Source of the DNA: Candidatus Odinarchaeota archaeon
GTDB lineage: Archaea; Asgardarchaeota; Odinarchaeia; Odinarchaeales; Odinarchaeaceae
Reading direction: 5' to 3'
DNA: 9,362 bases
NCBI GenBank assembly: GCA_038826135.1
Contig: JAWBON010000047.1
Coordinates: forward strand, 1 to 9,362
The notes under the pieces: model-generated
What the model was told of the DNA's origin: nothing
What the model saw: only the letters and a program-made list of their open reading frames with translations
Databases searched by the model: none
Translations under genes and position numbers: made by a program
In this document: positions 1 to 9,362 of the stretch, piece after piece
Position numbering within the stretch: position 1 is the first letter of the stretch
Layout of the letters: every line of letters begins with the position of its first letter

Positions 1-1529
1 AAATCTTTATGTCTTTTAAAGCTTCTAATCAGTTTATCATTTTCTTTAGAGGTAGCGTCGAATCTTTCAACAAACAATTTTTTATTTAACCTGTCTCCTA
101 TCCCGTAATCTAAAAGATCTTTAAGAACCTTGTATGAGGGAGTAAAAACACCTATATTCGCCGGTGTAGCGTCAACCGCCTCTGAAATTTTATCTATTAT
201 CTTATTGTAATTGCTTTCAACCCGCTGATTTAACGCGGTGCTAACACCTTCAACAATTAAAGCTAATACATTTTTTTTATCAAACGGTGATTTTAAAACA
301 GCTTGAACGGTTGAAGATGGTAACCCTGTAACGTCTATGAAGGCTTGTAGAGGTTGAATTGTTCCTGAAACAGATATCGTAGCATAGCACTGGCTGTAAA
401 TAATTCTAGTTATTCTTCTAGGGTCTAAAGCCACTATCTCTATTCTCGTATAGCTTCCACCGTCTCCTGTGAAATATTTTCTAATCACCTGGCAGTAGTC
501 TCTTCTTCCAACAGTATCCATCCAGTAAATTGTGAATTCTGCTAGTCGATGAATATAAGAGTGTGGCAGCTTTCCATCTGATATCATCAGTCTCTGAACC
601 GTCTCACCTTTTTCATGCATATCCTCCAAGAACCCCATCAGGTCACCGTAATCCGCTCCCCTCTGCAACGCGTCTTCAACAGTGTATTTTGGGACGAGTA
701 TCTCCTCCTCCTGACCTATTAAAGGTTCAAGTTCCTCGTATATTTTAAGAAATCTCTTGCAGAAAACTTTTATTTCACTTAACCTGTATTTTTCAGCTTC
801 ATTAATAGCTAATTTAATAGAGTTTTTAGACAGCGCGTCGCTTGATATGTTTAAAGCTATTTCAGGTAGGTTATGAGCTTCATCTAAAACAACTATTAGA
901 TCAGAGATTTTCCTCTTAAGATTGTTTAAAAAAAGTTCTCTAATATAAGGATTGAAAAGATACATGTAATTAGCAGCTATAATATTCACGTCCGGCAATA
1001 TTTTTTTAGCAAACTCGTAGGGGCATATTTCCAGTTTTCTACACACGCTGATTAATTCATCATTGCTTAAAGGGGTTGATAATGCAGCATTCTCCAATCT
1101 TTCATATAATCGGTTTCTCTCAACTAAATTAGTATAATATACGCATTTACCAAGCTTCTGAAGCTCTTTACACACGTTCATCGCAGAAGTCGGATCAGGG
1201 CAATATCTCCTCACAAACTGGTTGAAGCACATCTCCACTCTGCCTCTGAGAGAAACCCCTTTAACAGGCTTTCTTTTAGCGATGAGTTTAAGCTCGCTCA
1301 TAACCCGGTCTATCTGTTTATGTGTTCTAGCCAGATACACCACTGGGTGTTGTGAGCTTAAAGCACTAGGTAGCACACCTGACAGCAAACCAACTGTTTT
1401 ACCTAATCCGTTACAGCCTTCTATAACAGCGTGGCCGCCTTTACGCGATATCTCCCGAGCTATTTCTATAAGCTCTCTCTGACCCTCCCGGACACTCTCA
1501 TATGGGAAAAACTCATCTAAATCGATCAT
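1..1529 (-). CDS. xpd: XPD/Rad3/DinG-family SF2 5'-3' DNA helicase with 4Fe-4S domain (partial, runs off left edge)
   Basis: Hand translation from ATG at 1529 (in-frame TAA upstream at 1566-1568) is open for 509 codons to the window edge: MIDLDEFFPYESVREGQ... It shows Q motif (FPY...REGQ), Walker A EGCNGLGKT (37-45), motif Ia LARTHKQ, Fe-S cysteines C101/C120/C129/C169 (…EMCF…NVC…GKCVYY…ICPY), Walker B LDEAHN (215-220), motif III SGT (388-390) and motif IV GVFTPSY (460-466). It is absent from the ORF track because its stop lies outside the window. Confidence 0.93.
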   Translation of the reverse strand, partial: MIDLDEFFPYESVREGQRELIEIAREISRKGGHAVIEGCNGLGKTVGLLSGVLPSALSSQHPVVYLARTHKQIDRVMSELKLIAKRKPVKGVSLRGRVEMCFNQFVRRYCPDPTSAMNVCKELQKLGKCVYYTNLVERNRLYERLENAALSTPLSNDELISVCRKLEICPYEFAKKILPDVNIIAANYMYLFNPYIRELFLNNLKRKISDLIVVLDEAHNLPEIALNISSDALSKNSIKLAINEAEKYRLSEIKVFCKRFLKIYEELEPLIGQEEEILVPKYTVEDALQRGADYGDLMGFLEDMHEKGETVQRLMISDGKLPHSYIHRLAEFTIYWMDTVGRRDYCQVIRKYFTGDGGSYTRIEIVALDPRRITRIIYSQCYATISVSGTIQPLQAFIDVTGLPSSTVQAVLKSPFDKKNVLALIVEGVSTALNQRVESNYNKIIDKISEAVDATPANIGVFTPSYKVLKDLLDYGIGDRLNKKLFVERFDATSKENDKLIRSFKRHKD

Positions 1530-1748
1530 ATTCAACTCATCTTCATCCGAGCAGGAGTAACCTGTTTAATAGAATGCACCCCGTCTATTTCCAAAGTTTT
1601 TAATCACCCTAATTAATATATAGATGTTGCTGGCTTTTTAGAGAAACCATCACCCTTACCTGATTAGATTTTAAATTTCGGGAAGCGAAGGTAGCAAGTT
1701 ATAAATATCTCTTTTAAATAATTTAATTAGCGTCACATTAGTTAATGA

Positions 1749-1801: not shown

Positions 1802-4800
1802 ATGGGTTGGAAAATTGCGAGTTTCAGCGAAAATATTAGGGGTCTAATAAGCTTTAAGCGTGAGAAGTTTAAGCTTAAGAGTTTAATACTTTACATTTCA
1901 CTTATATCAATATTCTTAATAGCTTTATTCGTAAGATTAACACCAGCAGCCTACGAGGCGATATTGAAAGGCTTCGACCCTTACTTTCAATTCAGGCAAA
2001 CCCAGTATATAGTTGAAAACGGTTTTTCAGCATGGTTTAACTGGCATGACCCGTTCTCCTGGTATCCTTGGGGTAGAGATATACCTGCGAACAGTTATCC
2101 GGGTTTACCGTTCGCAGCTGCAGCTGTATATCTTTTTCTCACAGGAATCGGTTTACCGATCAATCTTTTAGAAATGTGTTGGGCTTGGCCGGCTTTTATG
2201 GGGGCTTTAACAACGATTGCAATGTATTTTCTAGGTAAAGAATTCGGGTCGAAGAAGGTTGGGCTTATCGCTGCTTTCTTCCTAGCTCTTATGCCCGCAT
2301 ATTTTCAGAGGACGATCGCCGGGTTCTTCGATAATGAGACTGTCGGTATACTTTTAATGGTTTTAACCACGTATTTTTACATAAGAGCTATTAAACGGGA
2401 ATCTGTGTTTTCAAGTCTTTTAAGCGGGCTGGCATTAGCTTATTTAACTATTACATGGGGTGCTAACATTTACTTCTTCTACCTGATACCTTTATCTAAC
2501 TTAATCTTTTTAATTCTTAAAAAATATAAGCCGTTTTATTTAATCCCCTATGCTTTAACAATCGGAATCCCGCTTTTAGTCGGATCCCAGATTCCCCTGC
2601 TCGGAGGAGCTAATATAATATTCAACGGAACCGGGATTATTTCGATAGGTGTGCTGGGGATCCTTGTATTATACGAGTTAATAGGCAGGTTTAGGAAATC
2701 CCCTACTTACGCTAAGATAAAACCTTATACGCTTCCTATAATAGGCGGGATTATAGGAGTTATAGCTCTCAGCGTAATCGTGCTCTATTTTATAGCTCAA
2801 ATTAATATAATATCCCCTATTATAGGGGTGGTCGCTAGTCTCCCTGCTAGATTTTTATCTATAATTAATCCTTTAGCTAGATCAGAGGTTTACTTGGTAG
2901 CCTCTGTAGGTGAGCACGCTGTCACCTCTTGGGGGGTATTCTACTACTATCTTTTCATCCCCATATTTCTATTCCCTGTGGGAATATACTTTGTTATCAA
3001 GCGTTTAGAAACCACGGATATACTTCTTTTAACTGCCTTAATCACGTCACTGTACTTTTCAGCCTCCATGATTAGATTACTGCTTGTTCTTGCACCTTTC
3101 ATCTGTTTATTCGCAGCTTACGGGCTTGTAAATGTTATGAAACCCTTCTCCTCTATAATAAGTAAGGAGACAATCACGGTATCGCTTAGGAAGAGACGGG
3201 TCAGTAAAACTGTTTCACGCGAATACAGTGTGATAGCGTTCGGAATAGTCTTCATTCTTTTAGCTGCGAATTTATGGCATGGAATAGACGTATCCCGGCA
3301 GTTCGCTCCCTCCGAGATGGTTGGTTTAGGTGTTTACTATGATTGGCAAGAGTCTTTTCAATGGATGAGAAATAACATAGGCACCGGTAGGGTGATCCTA
3401 TCATGGTGGGATTACGGTTACTGGATAACCGCTGTTGCTAATGAAACCACGTTGATGGATAACGGAACCTTTAATGAGACGCAGATTGCCATCCTCGGCT
3501 TAGCTTTAATGTCAGGGGAGGTTGAAGCTCTTAAAATAATGCGCCAATACGGTGTAGAATATGTTCTCGTTCACTTCGGATACTTTATACCCTCCCTCAG
3601 CGGTGATGAGGGTAAATGGATTTGGATGGTTAGAATAGCTTCAGACAACTATCCTGAAATCATAAATGAAAGCCAATACTATAATGCTACAGCAGGTAAA
3701 CCTACATCAAAATTCTTCGACAGTCTCATATACAAGTTACTATTCTATAAGGAGCCTGGATCATATGAGTTAGCATCCTACGTCAGTAATAGTATGGATA
3801 AGCTAGGTTATCCTAAATACCAGTCTTATCCTACAAGTCAGCGTTGGATGTTCATCGGAGCTGACAGTGATTACCCTGTTTTCAATGCAGCTTACATCTC
3901 ATCTCATAACCTGGTTAAATTATACAAAGTCGATTACACCATTCTCGACACATGGCTTGAAATAGTGAATACCACAGTTTACACTTTTCCAGATAAGACC
4001 TGCGCGCTAGTAACGGTTAGAAACAACGGTTCTGAACCCGTCACCGTTGACACATCCTCGTCTTCAATATTAATAAACGGGAGTAAGCTCTCCACTGTAG
4101 GAGGCTCAGCCCATGTGGCTGAAGGTTCAGCGTTAATGAACCCGGGGGAAACCTGTACTGTTAAAATAGATGTTAACTCAAACTCCACGGTTGGAACAGC
4201 TTTTAACACGACAATAAGGTCTGTGGAGTTTTACGGTTACCGTAAATCTTCAGATATAAACATTGTTAGAGCCGCAGGCTCTTTAAGCATATCTATTATT
4301 AACGCTACCGCTTACAGTAATGAGACAATATTTTTGAATGTTGAAAACACGGGTGATGAATACTTAACTGTAACCAAGATTTATGTTAACGGCTCATCGA
4401 GCGGTGTGAATATTCAAGGTGATTTAACTCTCGCTCCGGGGCAGGTTCAAATGTACACGCTTACCTTCAACCCTGTTAACTATCCTTCACTTAATCTTAA
4501 CGTATCGGATATAGTTAACATAAATATTTCCACATGGGAGGGGGTCTCCGATACTTTAACAGGTGTAGTGGTTCAAAGCCCGCCCGGCTATAATTTCACG
4601 GTAAGCGAGGTTAACGTATTCAGTAACGAGACTGTTTTATTCAACATGTTTAATAACGGCTCATACCCGCTGGGCATCTCTCATATAATATTATCTACTG
4701 GGATCGGTAGTGTAACATTTTACAGGTCCTCTATAACCGCTCTTAACGGAAGTTTAACAATTAATCCAGGTTCAACTATAAGATATAAAGTCGCTTGGGC

Positions 4801-5500
4801 GCCTTCTCTAATAGATTTAAACCAGACTGATATGGTTAACATAACAGTTTGCACATATGAAGGTCTAGAATACACAGTTCAGAATATTACTGTAACGGAA
4901 CCTGTAGGCTACGATTACACAGTTACAGGTCAAGTATATGATAATGAAACAGCTTACCTTACTGTAAGTAATAACGGGTCTTATCCTATAACTTTGAGAA
5001 CTGTTACCGCTAACGGCACGATTGTAAATACTATAACTCCCATCAACGGCTCAATGACATTAAACCCTGGTGTGGCTACCTTGTATAAGATTGTCTGGGA
5101 TCCGTTTATATTTAATGTGAGTGCAGGCGAGTACGTTGAGTTGAAGACTATAACCTTCCAGGATATTAACCGGACAATCTCATGCTTGGTAGAATCCTCA
5201 AATTACTCTATAATGATAGATCCATCTATAACATTTATCTACTCTAATAATACTATTTTTATCACTTTGAATAATACGAGCCCGTCTTTTTCAATTAATA
5301 ATCTCACTATACTCGTTGAAAACCAAACTTCCGGGGAGAGTCAATACTTAACGTGGACGGGTGTATTAAACACAGGCGAATCAGTAAATTTGAGTTTTAA
5401 TCTTGATGAGATGCCTTCTTTGAATGCTGGTGAAACACTGCGGGTTGCGGTGAAATCGGTTGAAAATGCAAGTTACCAGGTGCTAGAAACTGTATTATAA
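1802..5500 (+). CDS. aglB: Oligosaccharyltransferase catalytic subunit AglB/STT3 with long C-terminal tandem-repeat extension (1232 aa)
   Basis: Multi-pass hydrophobic N-terminal half followed by a soluble domain. STT3 motifs occur in canonical order: FDPY (D59), WYPWGR, FFDNE (177-179), SVGEH (E371), SMIRLLLVLAP (R425), WWDYG (535-539; nt 3404-3418), DNGTFN (553-558) and DK motif D602-x2-K605-x3-M609. LYKV at 707-710 ends the core. Confidence 0.97.
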   Translation: MGWKIASFSENIRGLISFKREKFKLKSLILYISLISIFLIALFVRLTPAAYEAILKGFDPYFQFRQTQYIVENGFSAWFNWHDPFSWYPWGRDIPANSYPGLPFAAAAVYLFLTGIGLPINLLEMCWAWPAFMGALTTIAMYFLGKEFGSKKVGLIAAFFLALMPAYFQRTIAGFFDNETVGILLMVLTTYFYIRAIKRESVFSSLLSGLALAYLTITWGANIYFFYLIPLSNLIFLILKKYKPFYLIPYALTIGIPLLVGSQIPLLGGANIIFNGTGIISIGVLGILVLYELIGRFRKSPTYAKIKPYTLPIIGGIIGVIALSVIVLYFIAQINIISPIIGVVASLPARFLSIINPLARSEVYLVASVGEHAVTSWGVFYYYLFIPIFLFPVGIYFVIKRLETTDILLLTALITSLYFSASMIRLLLVLAPFICLFAAYGLVNVMKPFSSIISKETITVSLRKRRVSKTVSREYSVIAFGIVFILLAANLWHGIDVSRQFAPSEMVGLGVYYDWQESFQWMRNNIGTGRVILSWWDYGYWITAVANETTLMDNGTFNETQIAILGLALMSGEVEALKIMRQYGVEYVLVHFGYFIPSLSGDEGKWIWMVRIASDNYPEIINESQYYNATAGKPTSKFFDSLIYKLLFYKEPGSYELASYVSNSMDKLGYPKYQSYPTSQRWMFIGADSDYPVFNAAYISSHNLVKLYKVDYTILDTWLEIVNTTVYTFPDKTCALVTVRNNGSEPVTVDTSSSSILINGSKLSTVGGSAHVAEGSALMNPGETCTVKIDVNSNSTVGTAFNTTIRSVEFYGYRKSSDINIVRAAGSLSISIINATAYSNETIFLNVENTGDEYLTVTKIYVNGSSSGVNIQGDLTLAPGQVQMYTLTFNPVNYPSLNLNVSDIVNINISTWEGVSDTLTGVVVQSPPGYNFTVSEVNVFSNETVLFNMFNNGSYPLGISHIILSTGIGSVTFYRSSITALNGSLTINPGSTIRYKVAWAPSLIDLNQTDMVNITVCTYEGLEYTVQNITVTEPVGYDYTVTGQVYDNETAYLTVSNNGSYPITLRTVTANGTIVNTITPINGSMTLNPGVATLYKIVWDPFIFNVSAGEYVELKTITFQDINRTISCLVESSNYSIMIDPSITFIYSNNTIFITLNNTSPSFSINNLTILVENQTSGESQYLTWTGVLNTGESVNLSFNLDEMPSLNAGETLRVAVKSVENASYQVLETVL
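3950..5497 (+). repeat. Five diverged protein-level tandem repeats (~97-110 aa) in the AglB C-terminus
   Basis: Approximate units are residues 717-826, 827-929, 930-1036, 1037-1133 and 1134-1232. Recurrent words are [YF]-[SD]-N-[EN]-T (units 2-5), N-[NT]-G-[SD]-x-P/Y (units 1-4), L-[TM]-[LI]-N/A-P-G-like (units 1-4; LNTG in unit 5) and T-[WY]-E-G (units 2-3). DNA-level identity is limited to short stretches (e.g. aataacggctcataccc vs aataacgggtcttatcc). Confidence 0.8.
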
Positions 5501-5721: not shown

Positions 5722-6519
5722 TTAACTAATTTTCTTCCAGTCCCCGTCTCCGCCTAGGCTTCTAATAGTTTTTAAAATCATGTTAGCTGAATTGGATAAT
5801 GCTTTTTCAGCTGTTTTATAATCCGGGGCTTCTATTTCAAACTGATATCTCGGAGACCCTAATAAGAATATTCGTCCTTTTACACCAGGTTCGTTTTCTA
5901 ATTCTTCAAGACCCTTCATAAGAGCGGTTTTTACCGCATCCACTCCGTCGGGTTTATAACAGGTGACGTCTATTTCAGCCAGCATTTTAACCGTCGGTAT
6001 TTCAACATGCTCTAACGCCTCCCGATATATTACATCCCGCCATGCGGCTGGTATCTTAGCTTCTTCAAGAGCAGCCACCCCGTTCTTTTTTACAGCTTGC
6101 AGACCCTTATATATTTCACCGTATGTGTCTTCCAGCCTCCAGCCCACCTCCTGGTAGGCTTCATCTATAGTTTTACCCAGTTTATCAGCTGCTAATTTAA
6201 GTATGCCCTCCGCGTTTTTAGCGCGTTTCCATGCTTGTATTTTCTCTTTTTTCTGCTGTTCAGTCACTCTTCTCAGGGAAAGATCGATTTGTTTTTTCTC
6301 CCTGTTCACTCTGAGAACTTTAGTAACTATTTTCTGCCCTTCTTTAACAAAGTTTCTTATATTCTTTATCCAGCTAGATGCTATTTCCGATAAGTGAACG
6401 AATCCTCTAAGCCCAGGATACTCCTCTAAATCAACATAGGCTCCATGAGAAGTAATGTCTGTTACAGTACATAAAAGCAGGTCGCCCTCTGAGGGCATCT
6501 CCCTCCTAGTTTTTACCAA
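5722..6519 (-). CDS. eif2a: Translation initiation factor 2 subunit alpha (aIF2-alpha), ~265 aa
   Basis: S1 domain (P.EGDL…V..I..HGAYV.L.EY…GFVHLSEIAS.WIKNIR…KVLRV…QIDLSLRRV), helical domain, and C-terminal domain with GSPRY. The start is placed at TTG 6519 (MVKTRREMPSEG) rather than 6534, because GGAGGT lies 7 nt upstream of 6519. Confidence 0.95.
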   Translation of the reverse strand: MVKTRREMPSEGDLLLCTVTDITSHGAYVDLEEYPGLRGFVHLSEIASSWIKNIRNFVKEGQKIVTKVLRVNREKKQIDLSLRRVTEQQKKEKIQAWKRAKNAEGILKLAADKLGKTIDEAYQEVGWRLEDTYGEIYKGLQAVKKNGVAALEEAKIPAAWRDVIYREALEHVEIPTVKMLAEIDVTCYKPDGVDAVKTALMKGLEELENEPGVKGRIFLLGSPRYQFEIEAPDYKTAEKALSNSANMILKTIRSLGGDGDWKKIS

Positions 6520-6526
6520 AACACTA

Positions 6527-6532
6527 ACCTCC
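6527..6532 (-). promoter_or_regulatory. Shine-Dalgarno site of aIF2-alpha
   Basis: GGAGGT on the minus strand, 7 nt upstream of TTG 6519. Confidence 0.65.
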
Positions 6533-6578
6533 AAAATATATTACTAACAGTTTACGTGCGGGAGGATAACATGAATTT

Positions 6579-6767
6579 CTATAGGACGGTTACTATTTTC
6601 GTTTTAAATCTGGTTTTACCACCAGTAGGCTCCGCTATCACTCGACCGCATGTTTCGCATTTAACCTCAGTTGCTGCGCATCCGAACACAATCTGCTCTG
6701 AGCCGCAGTCTAAGCATTTAACTTTTAAGAATTTACTTTTAGGTTCAGGTATTTTCTCCTTAACCAA
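6579..6767 (-). CDS. rps27e: 30S ribosomal protein S27e (62 aa)
   Basis: IPEPKSKFLKVKCLDCGSEQIVF…VKCETCGRVIAEPTGGK is the S27e signature with both CxxC pairs. TTG start. Confidence 0.96.
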   Translation of the reverse strand: MVKEKIPEPKSKFLKVKCLDCGSEQIVFGCAATEVKCETCGRVIAEPTGGKTRFKTKIVTVL

Positions 6768-6772
6768 ATAAG

Positions 6773-6779
6773 ATCACCT
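6773..6779 (-). promoter_or_regulatory. Shine-Dalgarno site of rps27e
   Basis: AGGTGAT on the minus strand, 5 nt upstream of TTG 6767. Confidence 0.7.
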
Positions 6780-6783
6780 TAAT

Positions 6784-7059
6784 TTAGGCAAACTCTAATT
6801 TTTTAAGCCTCATACCTTTCCGCTGAATAACGTAGCCGCACTCCTTACACTTATATTTTAACAGCTGTTTCTTAGTTGTTTTAGCAAATTTTTTCTGGAT
6901 TGGTTTAGGTTGACTACCGTATCCTGCTTTCTTCCTAGCGTATCTTCTAGCACCCTCTGATAACGGGCTGTCCCTACCCTTCTTATATAATGCAACTGTA
7001 TGCTCGGTGTGAGTTTTACATTTAGGACAGTATGTGTTAACCGTTTTTACCATTCTCAT
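6784..7059 (-). CDS. rpl44e: 50S ribosomal protein L44e (eL42), 91 aa
   Basis: TYCPKCKTHTEHTV..YKKG….L..G.RRY.RK..GYGSQPKP…K.AKTTKK..LKYKCKECG is the L44e signature with zinc-finger cysteines. The start overlaps the gins15 3' end by 23 nt. Confidence 0.96.
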   Translation of the reverse strand: MRMVKTVNTYCPKCKTHTEHTVALYKKGRDSPLSEGARRYARKKAGYGSQPKPIQKKFAKTTKKQLLKYKCKECGYVIQRKGMRLKKLEFA

Positions 7060-7534
7060 ATTTTCTACCCCACATTATTTCAACAGCAGCGTTTCTTTTA
7101 ATAAGTGCGAGTGCGTTTTTAACCGGTAGTGTGGCCACATCCTCGGCGTTGAAAGGCCCGTAGTTTTGCAGGTCTGAACCTACAATGGTAGGAATTGATT
7201 GCAGTAATCGAATTATTAAATATTTCGGTTCATGACTCTCGCTTTCTAAATGTTTCCTGCTGTTATCCTCCGGATTTAAATTCACCGTTTCCCTGTCTAG
7301 TTTAGTGCTTTCAACGCGGCTTTTATGATTAGTTTCTTCTTCAAAATATTCTACCAGTAATTTAAGATTGGCTATTTTCCGTTCACATATTTTTTTGACT
7401 ATAGGCGTCTTAGCTTCTAATGCGCTTTGAAGAGATTTTAAATATTCTATTATTTTATTTTTAATTTCGCTTTCTACCTTACCGTCGTTTTTAACTTTGG
7501 CCGCCATCCAAGCCCTATATATTTCATCATACAT
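7037..7534 (-). CDS. gins15: GINS complex subunit, Gins15/Gins51 type (A-B domain order), 165 aa
   Basis: The C-terminal B domain YLIIRLLQSIPTIVGSDLQNYGPFNAEDVATLPVKNALALIKRNAAVEI (105-153) is typical of Gins15. The N-terminus is helical. It lies between priS and rpl44e, its established archaeal context. GGGGAG is present upstream (7545-7550). Confidence 0.85.
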   Translation of the reverse strand: MYDEIYRAWMAAKVKNDGKVESEIKNKIIEYLKSLQSALEAKTPIVKKICERKIANLKLLVEYFEEETNHKSRVESTKLDRETVNLNPEDNSRKHLESESHEPKYLIIRLLQSIPTIVGSDLQNYGPFNAEDVATLPVKNALALIKRNAAVEIMWGRKYENGKNG

Positions 7535-7565
7535 TATTATTCAACTCCCCTGATCTAGAAAATGG

Positions 7566-7579
7566 TTTAAATATATTTA
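7566..7579 (-). promoter_or_regulatory. Candidate internal promoter (TATA-like) upstream of gins15
   Basis: The 50-bp priS-gins15 spacer holds an AT-only tract, TAAATATATTTAAA on the minus strand, 32-45 bp upstream of ATG 7534. It includes the 12-bp palindrome TAAATATATTTA (7568-7579). Confidence 0.35.
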
Positions 7580-7584
7580 TTATG

Positions 7585-8853
7585 TTAAGTGCTCTGAGAT
7601 ATTATTTCCGCAACGTTTTTACATGCGAGGAACACTCCCACGCTCGTAGGGAGCTCGGCAACTTCATTGTAGAAGGGCCCGTATGAGGAATCGTTTATCA
7701 CTATTCTGGGAGCCCTGTTTATTTTAACTTTCACATAGCCTTTAAAAACCTGTGAGTCCTTCAACGGGTTGAATTCTTCTAATTCCTCTCTTGTAAGAAG
7801 CTGGGTTTTAAACCCGGTTTTACCGTTAAGGGAGTTAGGGAGTCGTATAAGCCTATGGATGTCTGCTGTTACCGGTTCATCTATTTTACCAGCGTAAAGC
7901 TTGATAGCGGCTTCAATTATTTTCCCCCAATCGTTTATCTTAAGTTTAGCCAGATCCCAGCTGATACCGTTTACGCCGGGTATTCGTGTATCCTTTAATG
8001 ATAGGCTGGTTACTAGGAAGTCTCTGTTATCTAATAATATTTTTCTTTTAGGTTTATTGAATCCTATACTGGTAAGCGCTTTTTCATCAGTTTCTGATAG
8101 GAATCTTGAAACATACCTGTTTATTCTACCCCGCCAACCGTAATCGTCTGATTTAGGGCCGACTATTATCCTCCCAGGTATTTGTATAAGACCGTGGAAC
8201 TCCGGGGTCACACCGTTTCCAGTAATATAGTCGATTAACTCTTTTCTAGCGTTAGCGTCTAATGTTTTAATTTTATCATCCTCTACGTGAATATGGTAGC
8301 CTCTATGCCCTGAAAAAGCGAGGAATATTTTAGCCGGGTCTAAACTTAGATCTGATATTAGGAACTCATCTAGTACCTTAATTATTTCTTTTTTCGCAGT
8401 GTTCAAGCAATCACGGCATATCCAGGTGATTTTAGAAATATCTTTATTACCGCACTTCGGACAGCCTGCAGGGGGATCTCCTTTACCTTCAGCCTTACAT
8501 TTACTGCAGATCCAGATGTCATGCTCTTTTTTGCATGCAGTGTCTAAGTGATCAGCGTCTACATCAAATATTAGATCACATCCAGTCCAGTTTTTTCCCG
8601 TCATATCCGGAGCTGCAGGGTTTGTATAATATGCAGCTGAGTGATAGCAGTCGGAGGGGCCTAGCCTTTTACAGAAATCGATTAACTGTTTTAAATCTTC
8701 AAAAACTATGTGTCTGAGAAAATTAGGGTTATCGAAGAATAGGAACCCCCACTCTCTCCTAGCCGGTTTATCGACTTTAAACTCTTCAAATGTTATTTTT
8801 GAATAATATTCCTGGAATTTACTTCTTAGAAATATTCTTGTTTCCTCATCTAT
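7585..8853 (-). CDS. priS: DNA primase small (catalytic) subunit PriS, ~422 aa if started at ATA 8853
   Basis: AEP motifs are DLIFDVDADH (DxD at nt 8557-8565), FSGHRGYHIHV and VTADIHRLIRLPNSLNGKTG. The frame stays open 83 codons upstream of the ORF-track ATG (8604) and encodes conserved PriS N-terminal words (TRIFLRSKFQEYY, RREWGF, LRH, YHSAAYYTNP). The product identity is secure; the start codon is inferred. Confidence 0.93.
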   Translation of the reverse strand: MDEETRIFLRSKFQEYYSKITFEEFKVDKPARREWGFLFFDNPNFLRHIVFEDLKQLIDFCKRLGPSDCYHSAAYYTNPAAPDMTGKNWTGCDLIFDVDADHLDTACKKEHDIWICSKCKAEGKGDPPAGCPKCGNKDISKITWICRDCLNTAKKEIIKVLDEFLISDLSLDPAKIFLAFSGHRGYHIHVEDDKIKTLDANARKELIDYITGNGVTPEFHGLIQIPGRIIVGPKSDDYGWRGRINRYVSRFLSETDEKALTSIGFNKPKRKILLDNRDFLVTSLSLKDTRIPGVNGISWDLAKLKINDWGKIIEAAIKLYAGKIDEPVTADIHRLIRLPNSLNGKTGFKTQLLTREELEEFNPLKDSQVFKGYVKVKINRAPRIVINDSSYGPFYNEVAELPTSVGVFLACKNVAEIISQST

Positions 8854-9362
8854 TTTCTTTCACCAATTTCTTTCTGTTATAGTATCTTAATGGATGTGAT
8901 ATTTTACTGCATGTTTCATCCATATTTGAACATAATGAATATGTTTTCAATGTTTTACATGATGGTGGAGTGTATCTTGGTTTACTTGCATCTTTGCCTT
9001 TTATATGCTCTATTTGATATCTTGTTAATTTTTCATTGAAATCAGGCGCCGCTTTGAATAATTCAATAATTTCATCCTCGCTCATACCTATGTTTAATAG
9101 AAAAGATGTGAGTGTAAATCTGCCTTGATGTGATATGTTTTCTCCTAGTAATATTTTTGTTAAGAGTTCGCGGATGCAAGGCGGGAACGCTTCTTTTCTT
9201 ATAGGCCCTTCTATTTTAGTGTCTGGGAAACCTATGTTCTTCTTTAACTTCACCCAATCTGCTTTTAAATATTCAATAAGGCCTAGGAAACTATTATCCA
9301 ACTCTTTTAAATCGGGTTTAACAAGTTTTCTTGAGGCTAAATCTAATCTAACTCTCTCACTT
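8846..9362 (-). CDS. priL: DNA primase large subunit PriL, C-terminal 4Fe-4S domain (partial, starts beyond right edge)
   Basis: The frame is open from the right edge (…SERVRLDLASRKLVKPDLKELDNSF…), so TTG 9301 is not the true start. It contains FPPCI, HQGRFTLTSFLLNIG, PDFNEKLTRYQIEHI, YTPPSCKTLKTYSLC…C…HPLRYY with four Fe-S cysteines. Confidence 0.93.
   Translation of the reverse strand, partial: SERVRLDLASRKLVKPDLKELDNSFLGLIEYLKADWVKLKKNIGFPDTKIEGPIRKEAFPPCIRELLTKILLGENISHQGRFTLTSFLLNIGMSEDEIIELFKAAPDFNEKLTRYQIEHIKGKDASKPRYTPPSCKTLKTYSLCSNMDETCSKISHPLRYYNRKKLVKENR
8860..8864 (-). promoter_or_regulatory. Shine-Dalgarno-like site for priS inside the priL 3' end
   Basis: GGTGA on the minus strand, 6 nt upstream of ATA 8853. 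It matches the GGTGAT-type SD seen before rps27e. Confidence 0.5.

Follow-up and report, generated by a model that had tools for sequence, protein, structure and literature searches.

The oligosaccharyltransferase of an Odinarchaeia genome ends in a tandem array of Ig-like modules belonging to an Asgard AglB family

The aglB locus and its catalytic core

The DNA analyzed here, called the window throughout, is the entire 9362-bp contig (C47) of a 1.26-Mb metagenome-assembled genome (MAG), 93% complete, of a Candidatus Odinarchaeota archaeon. It contains aglB/STT3, the only STT3 gene of that genome, which encodes an oligosaccharyltransferase (OST) whose catalytic core is followed by an extracellular tail of immunoglobulin (Ig)-like units. 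An earlier note, written from the sequence alone, had read this tail as five tandem beta-sandwich-like repeats fused to the enzyme. The gene and its parts, with the independent E-value (i-E) of each unit against the unit profile and the predicted local distance difference test score (pLDDT) from AlphaFold2 (AF2) models where given, are as follows.

1802-5500, plus strand: aglB/STT3 gene, a single open frame of 1232 codons and a stop
1802-3271, plus strand: N-terminal polytopic GT-C membrane domain, residues 1 to ~490, with PF02516 over residues 32-438
3272-3937, plus strand: extracellular catalytic core, residues 491-712, with WWDYG, the DK motif, a sequon cluster and an AF2 model
3404-3418, plus strand: WWDYG motif, residues 535-539
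3605-3628, plus strand: DK motif DEGKWIWM, residues 602-609
3938-5500, plus strand: extracellular tail, residues 713-1232, five units of ~100 amino acids (aa), ~520 residues in all
3956-4276, plus strand: Unit 1 (U1), residues 719-825, the most divergent unit, adjoining the core; i-E 8.8e-27
4277-4576, plus strand: Unit 2 (U2), residues 826-925; i-E 2.4e-30
4577-4894, plus strand: Unit 3 (U3), residues 926-1031; i-E 4.1e-34
4895-5182, plus strand: Unit 4 (U4), residues 1032-1127; i-E 9.9e-32; model strands 344-436, pLDDT 83-92
5183-5497, plus strand: Unit 5 (U5), residues 1128-1232, the terminal unit; i-E 1.4e-25; pLDDT ~90

The N-terminal domain matches Pfam PF02516 (STT3) over residues 32-438 with an E-value of 1e-54, scoring 187 bits where the cut-off is 24.5; the STT3/PglB/AglB core domain of Pfam matches residues 531-588. 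About ten hydrophobic segments lie in the N-terminal domain, the final predicted transmembrane (TM) helix beginning near residue 470, and D59, D177, E179 and the V369/E371/H372 run are invariant across six homologues. Within the core, 22 aligned Asgard sequences show no variation at any of the five residues of W-W-D-Y-G, at D602 or at K605. The NCBIfam model TIGR04154 (archaeo_STT3, the archaeosortase A-associated euryarchaeal AglB) reaches 112 bits, below its cut-off of 450. The enzyme that carries the tail is a genuine STT3/AglB and is apparently active.

The core terminates with LVKLYKVDY (residues 704-712), the tail beginning with residue 713 at nt 3938 and the stop codon closing at nt 5500. 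The earlier note had placed this boundary at residue 712 (LYKVDY) by reading the sequence, and the lengths of other Asgard enzymes agree with it: in the 22-AglB alignment, three short forms of 677-740 aa end within ~25 residues of the aligned 712 position, while the longer ones carry on.

Among prokaryotic enzymes, Asgard AglB is the nearest relative of STT3, the catalytic subunit of eukaryotes. An AF2 model of the core with U1 (residues 490-830), built from the 22-sequence alignment, has a pLDDT of 83 and a predicted template modeling score (pTM) of 0.76. Its best structural match is human STT3B, with a VIA Z of 22.2 and 32% identity over 209 aligned residues; euryarchaeal AglB and PglB trail at Z 9-16, with AfAglB-S2 at 16.3 and PglB at 12.7. 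Foldseek ranks 1-12 for the same model are all human, yeast or canine STT3. As modeled, the extracellular core is thus markedly closer to eukaryotic STT3 than to euryarchaeal AglB.

Directly past WWDYG lie the sequons N547, N554 and N558 (window 3404-3490, residues 535-563, motif included), the last two of which hardly vary among the aligned Asgard sequences. A 2022 eLife paper describes a 'double sequon' common to eukaryotic STT3 and Asgard/TACK AglB, apparently the feature seen here.

The tail is built of five homologous Ig-like units

Comparison of the tail with itself by sliding-window Smith-Waterman alignment, set against shuffled sequences, gives scores up to 192 against a shuffled maximum of 54, with a period of 100-110 residues. 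The similarity is greatest among the inner units (U3-U4 z 21, U2-U3 z 15, U2-U4 z 12) and extends to U1-U4 (z 8); the other pairings of U1 and U5 are weaker, at z 1.3-5.3, those of U5 spanning z 1.3-4.6. Profiles join the outer units to the inner ones. A profile made only from U2-U4 of the homologues recovers U1 (i-E 2.5e-5) and U5 (2e-4), and an all-unit profile finds exactly five domains with i-E from 1e-25 to 4e-34. The repeat signal as a whole is significant. Plain BLASTP self-comparison returns no off-diagonal match, and Tandem Repeats Finder detects no nucleotide-level tandem repeat in the DNA, which indicates that the duplications are old.

The units share a set of short words, those quoted in the earlier note among them. 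In the first hairpin these are YSNET, FSNET, YDNET and YSNNT, followed further along by NNGSEP, NNGSYP and again NNGSYP, and by MNPGE, LAPGQ, INPGS and LNPGV. The family consensus, drawn from 92 aligned units, is aY-x-N-g-T ... V-x-N-T-G ... i-N-g-t ... L-x-P-g-E ... T-x-E-G. The linkers between units are short and contain proline; P927, P928, P1034 and G1036 are invariant among homologues. The protein closes with the last beta-hairpin of U5 and, as the earlier note had read, has no C-terminal hydrophobic anchor; the helix near residue 470 is the last one predicted.

Structure prediction supports five independent domains. An AF2 model of residues 696-1232, from an alignment of eight homologues, has a mean pLDDT of 87; in it the tail falls into five separate all-beta domains, each with seven to eight strands. 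Foldseek searches of the PDB with the tail return only tandem Ig-like arrays, namely HYDIN/ASH-type ciliary proteins, titin, RTX adhesin repeats and S-layer proteins. The same search of AFDB returns proteins named CARDB, DUF11, FN3 and choice-of-anchor D, together with an unnamed 1232-aa entry, A0A1Q9N6V3, that is 70% identical. For U1, the nearest solved single-domain folds are the archaellum stator proteins FlaF/FlaG (VIA Z 10-11) and archaeal type IV pilins and archaellins (Z 8-10), with root-mean-square deviations (rmsd) of 2.4-3.1 Å over ~90-106 residues and 16-22% identity; for common beta-sandwiches, VIA Z values of 8-11 are just modestly over background. Together with the fold searches, the model supports five independent Ig-like beta-sandwiches attached to an STT3.

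Profile search of all PDB sequences with the tail gives only chance-level matches (chymosin, E 0.13). The single family to pass its cut-off, and that only barely, is Pfam PF22544 (HYDIN/VesB/CFA65-like Ig, of the ASH class), which U2 matches with 27.1 bits against 25.5 when the tail is scanned alone and with 21.9 bits in the whole-protein scan. DUF4352 (PF11611) matches U1 only and stays below its cut-off (18.5 bits against 25.9), as do the NCBIfam choice-of-anchor D (NF012200) matches, which include U3; DUF11 gives no Pfam match. The NCBIfam ArlF and ArlG models score 22 and 16.6-21.8 bits on U1 against a cut-off of 110 (E 1.5e-4), a likeness of fold and not membership. The earlier note had compared the units to CARDB and archaeal-pilin-type sandwiches. 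The fold half of that comparison stands, in the likeness to pilin/FlaF-type and ASH/CARDB-class domains; membership in CARDB itself falls away, there being no PF07705 match at E <= 1 for either the whole protein or the tail alone. Broadly, then, the units fall into the ASH/pilin-like class of Ig-like beta-sandwiches, but outside every named family.

The fusion is a real and conserved gene

Five database proteins of 1232-1239 aa have the same layout, with tail identities of 38-72%, and a sixth is a 1050-aa partial sequence. The tail follows the STT3 core in five of seven Odinarchaeia genomes, one of them a one-contig 1.4-Mb genome. The two misses are a genome whose STT3 match reaches to within ~30 bases of a contig end, where the gene looks truncated, and a genome that is only 78% complete. 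An artefact in which assembly or annotation joined an STT3 gene to a separate surface-protein gene, a concern to which the short 9.4-kb MAG contig lends itself and for which no supporting evidence was found, has a negligible probability, since the reading frame is uninterrupted, the same frame of 1232-1241 aa occurs in five or more independent assemblies, including the one-contig genome, and the junction sequence is kept across Asgard classes.

A module family of Asgard AglB

The phylum shows wide variation in AglB length. STT3-holding frames occur in 145 of the 151 sampled genomes and range from ~680 to 1361 aa in family-specific steps. When the Odin unit profile was run on 17 Asgard AglBs taken from these genomes, four units were found in a 1132-aa protein, four to five in proteins of 1213-1350 aa, two in a 1016-aa protein, and one in proteins of 766 and 826 aa. 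By type, the count is four in a Baldr-type AglB, four to five in Loki-type, two in Hod-type and one in Frey-type AglBs. No significant unit was found in seven of the 17, which are the 677-740-aa forms and four proteins of 809-955 aa; the tail-less 677-aa AglB is labelled Borrarchaeum.

An exhaustive search of 1.84 billion representatives with the unit profile returned only 35 matches, 21 of them with WWDYG. The other 14 lack WWDYG and, apart from P0036, any hydrophobic segment; most are probably gene fragments. The longest arrays, of six to eight units, occur in STT3 proteins of 1586-1715 aa, and the three of these that bear a name are labelled Helarchaeota or Lokiarchaeota. Source labels overall comprise Lokiarchaeota/Promethearchaeia, Helarchaeota, Baldrarchaeia, Thorarchaeota, Hodarchaeota, Freyarchaeum and Jordarchaeales MAGs. 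A scan of contigs with Odin-type-specific patterns confirmed five loci, and no other open reading frame (ORF) of this genome matches the units. The unit family is thus found almost only on Asgard AglB, where its copy number varies from zero to eight between lineages. Pairwise scores do not resolve unit-by-unit orthology between Odin and the other classes, and no unit is assigned as ancestral.

One entry carries a label from outside Asgard archaea: P0051, in the cluster of P0015, is a 1135-aa four-unit AglB labelled 'Thermofilum sp. ex4484_82'. Clustering at 90% identity puts it together with proteins labelled Baldrarchaeia and Odinarchaeota, and the Thermofilum label is probably a binning or naming error, not an occurrence in TACK archaea.

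The C-terminal ends of 19 matches from the representative search and of the 17 sampled Asgard AglBs were compared. Unit-bearing tails show the final hairpin motif, and a hydrophobic helix is present in none. A hydropathy scan had hinted at a C-terminal TM helix in four relatives, and hence at doubly anchored Asgard forms; the segment turned out to be a hydrophobic final beta-hairpin.

Tails of another kind also occur. Two AglBs of ~910-920 aa, L011 (genome G130, family f6) and L014 (genome G111, family f26), carry a C-terminal extension that is unrelated in sequence and unmatched by the unit profile. Asgard AglB tails are therefore of at least two kinds.

Beyond Asgard archaea, a search restricted by length yielded 52 STT3 proteins of 2160-2540 aa. 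An organism name is given for six of these giants: five are of Thermoplasmatota type (Thermoplasmata, Methanomassiliicoccales), and the sixth is labelled only Euryarchaeota. The combination of an OST with a tandem beta-sandwich array recurs in Archaea, and the Asgard module family is its own version. The rarity that the earlier note implied for a five-unit array does not hold, given one to eight copies on AglB in many Asgard lineages and the Thermoplasmatota arrays of CarboxypepD_reg-type domains. The public proteins are annotated just as 'STT3 domain-containing' or hypothetical.

The tail is the most sequon-dense stretch of the genome

The C-terminal domain of AglB/STT3 is extracellular, and in this protein it holds most of the potential glycosylation sites: 31 of 38 N-x-S/T sequons lie in the tail. 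Composition-preserving shuffles of the tail contain 12.2 +/- 2.9 sequons (z 6.5 for the observed number), and none of 2000 shuffles reaches 31. The density of 5.96 sequons per 100 aa compares with a genome median of 0.42 and a top whole-ORF value of 4.32 among ORFs of at least 150 aa. Nearly half of these sites (15 of 31) are shared by every one of the seven full-length Odinarchaeia homologues, whose identities go down to 39%, and the sequon of the first hairpin recurs in 51 of 83 units from all lineages. Since no stretch of the genome is denser in sequons and half of the tail's sites do not vary among relatives, the tail is very probably a heavily N-glycosylated surface structure, and its glycosylation is presumably done by AglB itself.

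The same survey of this genome drew attention to an orphan 1247-aa ORF (C26:312-4052, plus strand) with 37 sequons and faint prealbumin/CarboxypepD_reg-like Pfam matches, a candidate for the major surface glycoprotein of the organism.

Neighboring genes

The following genes of the window lie on the minus strand.

3-1535, minus strand: XPD/Rad3-type helicase with DEAD_2 and HBB domains, cut off at the contig end and oriented divergently to aglB
5722-6534, minus strand: aIF2-alpha
6579-6767, minus strand: 62-aa zinc-ribbon ORF that looks like S27e
6784-7059, minus strand: ribosomal L44e
7037-7534, minus strand: Gins51-like protein
7585-8604, minus strand: PriS with a weak Gins51_C-like C-terminus
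8846-9361, minus strand: PriL

The string from 5722 to 9361 resembles a replication/translation gene cluster described in archaea.

In five related genomes a gene for an OST3/6-like membrane protein is found at a distance of 2-4.6 kb from aglB; it is upstream of aglB in the four in which both matches are on the plus strand. Its positions, as genome, contig and coordinates, are listed below.

G006:C1:706140-706493, OST3/6-like gene
G004:C1:596497-596853, OST3/6-like gene
G003:C39:15509-15850, OST3/6-like gene
G002:C73:3496-3834, OST3/6-like gene
G005:C11:4955-5308, OST3/6-like gene

In this genome the OST3/6-like gene sits on contig C25, apart from aglB, a separation probably due to the contig break beside the helicase gene.

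A stalk on the OST and the alternatives

The tail has been added to the catalytic machinery and does not belong to it, since short Asgard AglBs and eukaryotic STT3 do without it and the core is constant. It can be read as a counterpart, enlarged by repetition, of the 'peripheral' P1/P2 beta units in long euryarchaeal AglBs. The explanation that best accommodates these observations, held with slightly better than even confidence as a whole, is that the AglB-dedicated Ig-like array forms a self-glycosylated extracellular stalk or spacer. The tail would be a glycan-coated and fairly stiff stalk, ~20 nm long when extended if typical Ig-domain dimensions apply, projecting from the membrane-proximal active site into the cell-surface coat. 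There it may serve the enzyme as a spacer, tether or shield, and units gained or lost would tune its length. A stalk of tunable length is suggested by a core that is complete without the tail, by zero to eight units on an unchanged core, and by short linkers with invariant proline and glycine, traits that do not point to a catalytic element or to one that binds substrate in an exact position. The resemblance of U1 to FlaF/FlaG, which are cell-envelope proteins of the archaellum (VIA Z 10-11), also favors it. The geometry would be rod-like. The spacer or tether role taken by itself is more tentative, with somewhat less than an even chance.

Several observations weigh against the stalk. The tail model has a pTM of 0.47, which leaves the relative orientation of the domains undefined. 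The hairpin asparagine is kept in some units that lack the sequon, so conservation of the motif may be partly structural. If the module bound the envelope generically, it should turn up on other surface proteins too, yet the family is confined to AglB, a hint of a task specific to the OST. The tail is missing, moreover, from several Asgard lineages and from all eukaryotes.

Confinement to AglB also speaks for the main rival, an OST-specific substrate-handling arm, which is on balance unlikely. In this alternative the Ig-like modules, being of PapD/ASH class, form a platform that holds unfolded exported polypeptides near the active site or scans long substrates, and would raise the glycosylation of proteins and not of short peptides. 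It agrees with the ties in sequence between the units and the ASH/HYDIN/VesB Ig class and with the likeness in fold to the pilus chaperone YadV (Z 7.5), and the pTM of 0.76 for the 490-830 model would be compatible with U1 packing on the core. Copy numbers from zero to eight on an unchanged core are nevertheless odd for a guide that depends on geometry. The distal units would lie far from the active site, heavy glycosylation would mask their surfaces, and no evidence of a binding groove or of peptide binding was obtained.

A more ambitious extension of the stalk is rather improbable. It holds that the module is an ancient invention dedicated to Asgard AglB, a self-glycosylated arm that organizes the OST at the surface, and that eukaryotic STT3 shed this arm. 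The arm would position the OST in the surface coat, cluster enzymes or present substrates, and would have been lost once separate lumenal subunits and the endoplasmic reticulum lumen took over. The module occurs in MAGs labelled from Odin- to Hodarchaeota and may for that reason predate the split toward eukaryotes.

Passive stabilization is improbable to a greater degree. The authors of PMC3703281 suggest that units of A. fulgidus AglB-L outside CC may add thermal stability, and the units here could likewise be stabilizing or decorative peripheral domains, as proposed for P1/P2 of hyperthermophile AglB-L. Only U1 can touch the core, however, and the four further units cannot stabilize it. From one end of the tail to the other, purifying selection acts on sequon positions and linkers, and the longest arrays, of six to eight units, are in Helarchaeota- and Lokiarchaeota-labelled MAGs. 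Many MAGs of these two groups stem from moderate-temperature sediments.

The earlier note had also suggested that the tail could perform in cis what ribophorins and OST48, with their lumenal beta domains, do in trans in the eukaryotic complex, a proposal to which the strongly STT3-like core gives some color. It is now very unlikely, weakened by the presence in this genome and its relatives of a ribophorin I homologue (here a 576-aa frame on contig C60) and of OST3/6-like genes. The units show no likeness to ribophorin or OST48 in the Pfam and NCBIfam lists or in the top rows of the fold search, an absence that does not exclude similarity. A search for OST48 (PF03345) gave no match in the seven Odinarchaeia genomes, but its control also matched nowhere and the result carries no weight. 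Units are present, too, in a MAG labelled Hodarchaeota, a group reported as close to eukaryotes.

Significance

The module family and the architecture are real and conserved, and apparently undescribed. In those passages of work on Asgard N-glycosylation and the Asgard translocon that matched the search terms, AglB is treated as an STT3 look-alike (PMC11284389, PMC11417166, PMC8993221). Within the same kind of passages from the literature on Asgard N-glycosylation, AglB evolution and Asgard translocons, a C-terminal Ig-like array goes unmentioned. Surprise is limited by the fact that an OST with a beta-sandwich array is already present in sequence databases.

Between 40 and 55% of an Asgard AglB can be extracellular Ig-like array. 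If the family is conserved, variable in copy number, exclusive to AglB and the densest target of glycosylation, it defines a domain family that is without a Pfam entry and changes what should be modeled or expressed in studies of Asgard OSTs. Cultured Loki-type strains are expected to carry such tails. On the same condition, the tail would open to experiment the question of how a single-subunit OST is placed at the archaeal surface, and that of the losses that led toward the eukaryotic complex.

Comparison with known systems

Eukaryotic STT3 (human STT3A/STT3B and yeast Stt3; 6S7O, 6S7T, 8B6L, 6EZN) is the best match to the Odin-type core, with 28-33% identity and Foldseek E-values down to 7e-16. 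The two have in common WWDYG, the DK motif and the sequon cluster past WWDYG. The alignment covers model residues 1-229 only (protein residues 490-718), leaving U1 unaligned. Eukaryotic STT3 ends close to the core boundary; it lacks an Ig-like tail and acts as part of a complex of several subunits.

Long euryarchaeal AglBs (A. fulgidus 3WAJ/3WAK/7E9S; P. furiosus and P. horikoshii 2ZAI/3VU1; with CC, IS and P1/P2) are likewise single-subunit OSTs with extra beta-rich extracellular units behind or around the catalytic CC unit. In these enzymes, one or two non-repeated units are packed on CC, whereas the Odin-type enzyme has five homologous Ig-like modules in a string. The function of the extra units of long euryarchaeal AglBs is unknown, and P1 units differ even among solved AglBs (PMC3703281). 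The core separates the two types as well: AfAglB-L gives a Z of 13.1 to the core described here, against Z 22.2 and 32% identity for eukaryotic STT3. The 3WAJ alignment falls within model range 12-322 and comprises only 166 residues at that Z of 13.1, and Foldseek alignments to long AglBs, of ~390-460 columns, have an rmsd of 13-20 Å. Profile search of PDB sequences did not detect the family of the tail in long euryarchaeal AglBs.

The giant AglBs of Thermoplasmatota share the overall plan, likewise consisting of an STT3 domain followed by a long tandem beta-sandwich array. Their domains are PF13620, PF13715 and PF17210, of CarboxypepD_reg/prealbumin type, none of which occurs in the Odin-type tail, and their core is of euryarchaeal type, unlike the STT3-like core described here.

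At the level of single domains, the nearest folds to U1 are FlaF/FlaG (ArlF/ArlG; 4P94, 5TUG, 5TUH) and the beta-sandwiches of pilins and archaellins (6W8U, 8FK7, 8FJS, 8Q30). Unlike pilins, the units have no pilin-type N-terminal helix or signal. ASH/HYDIN/VesB, CARDB, DUF11 and choice-of-anchor D domains share with the units a hydrophobic strand ending in N-x-G and a later L-x-P-G-E. Unlike those families, the Asgard units form their own tight family, confined to Asgard AglB.

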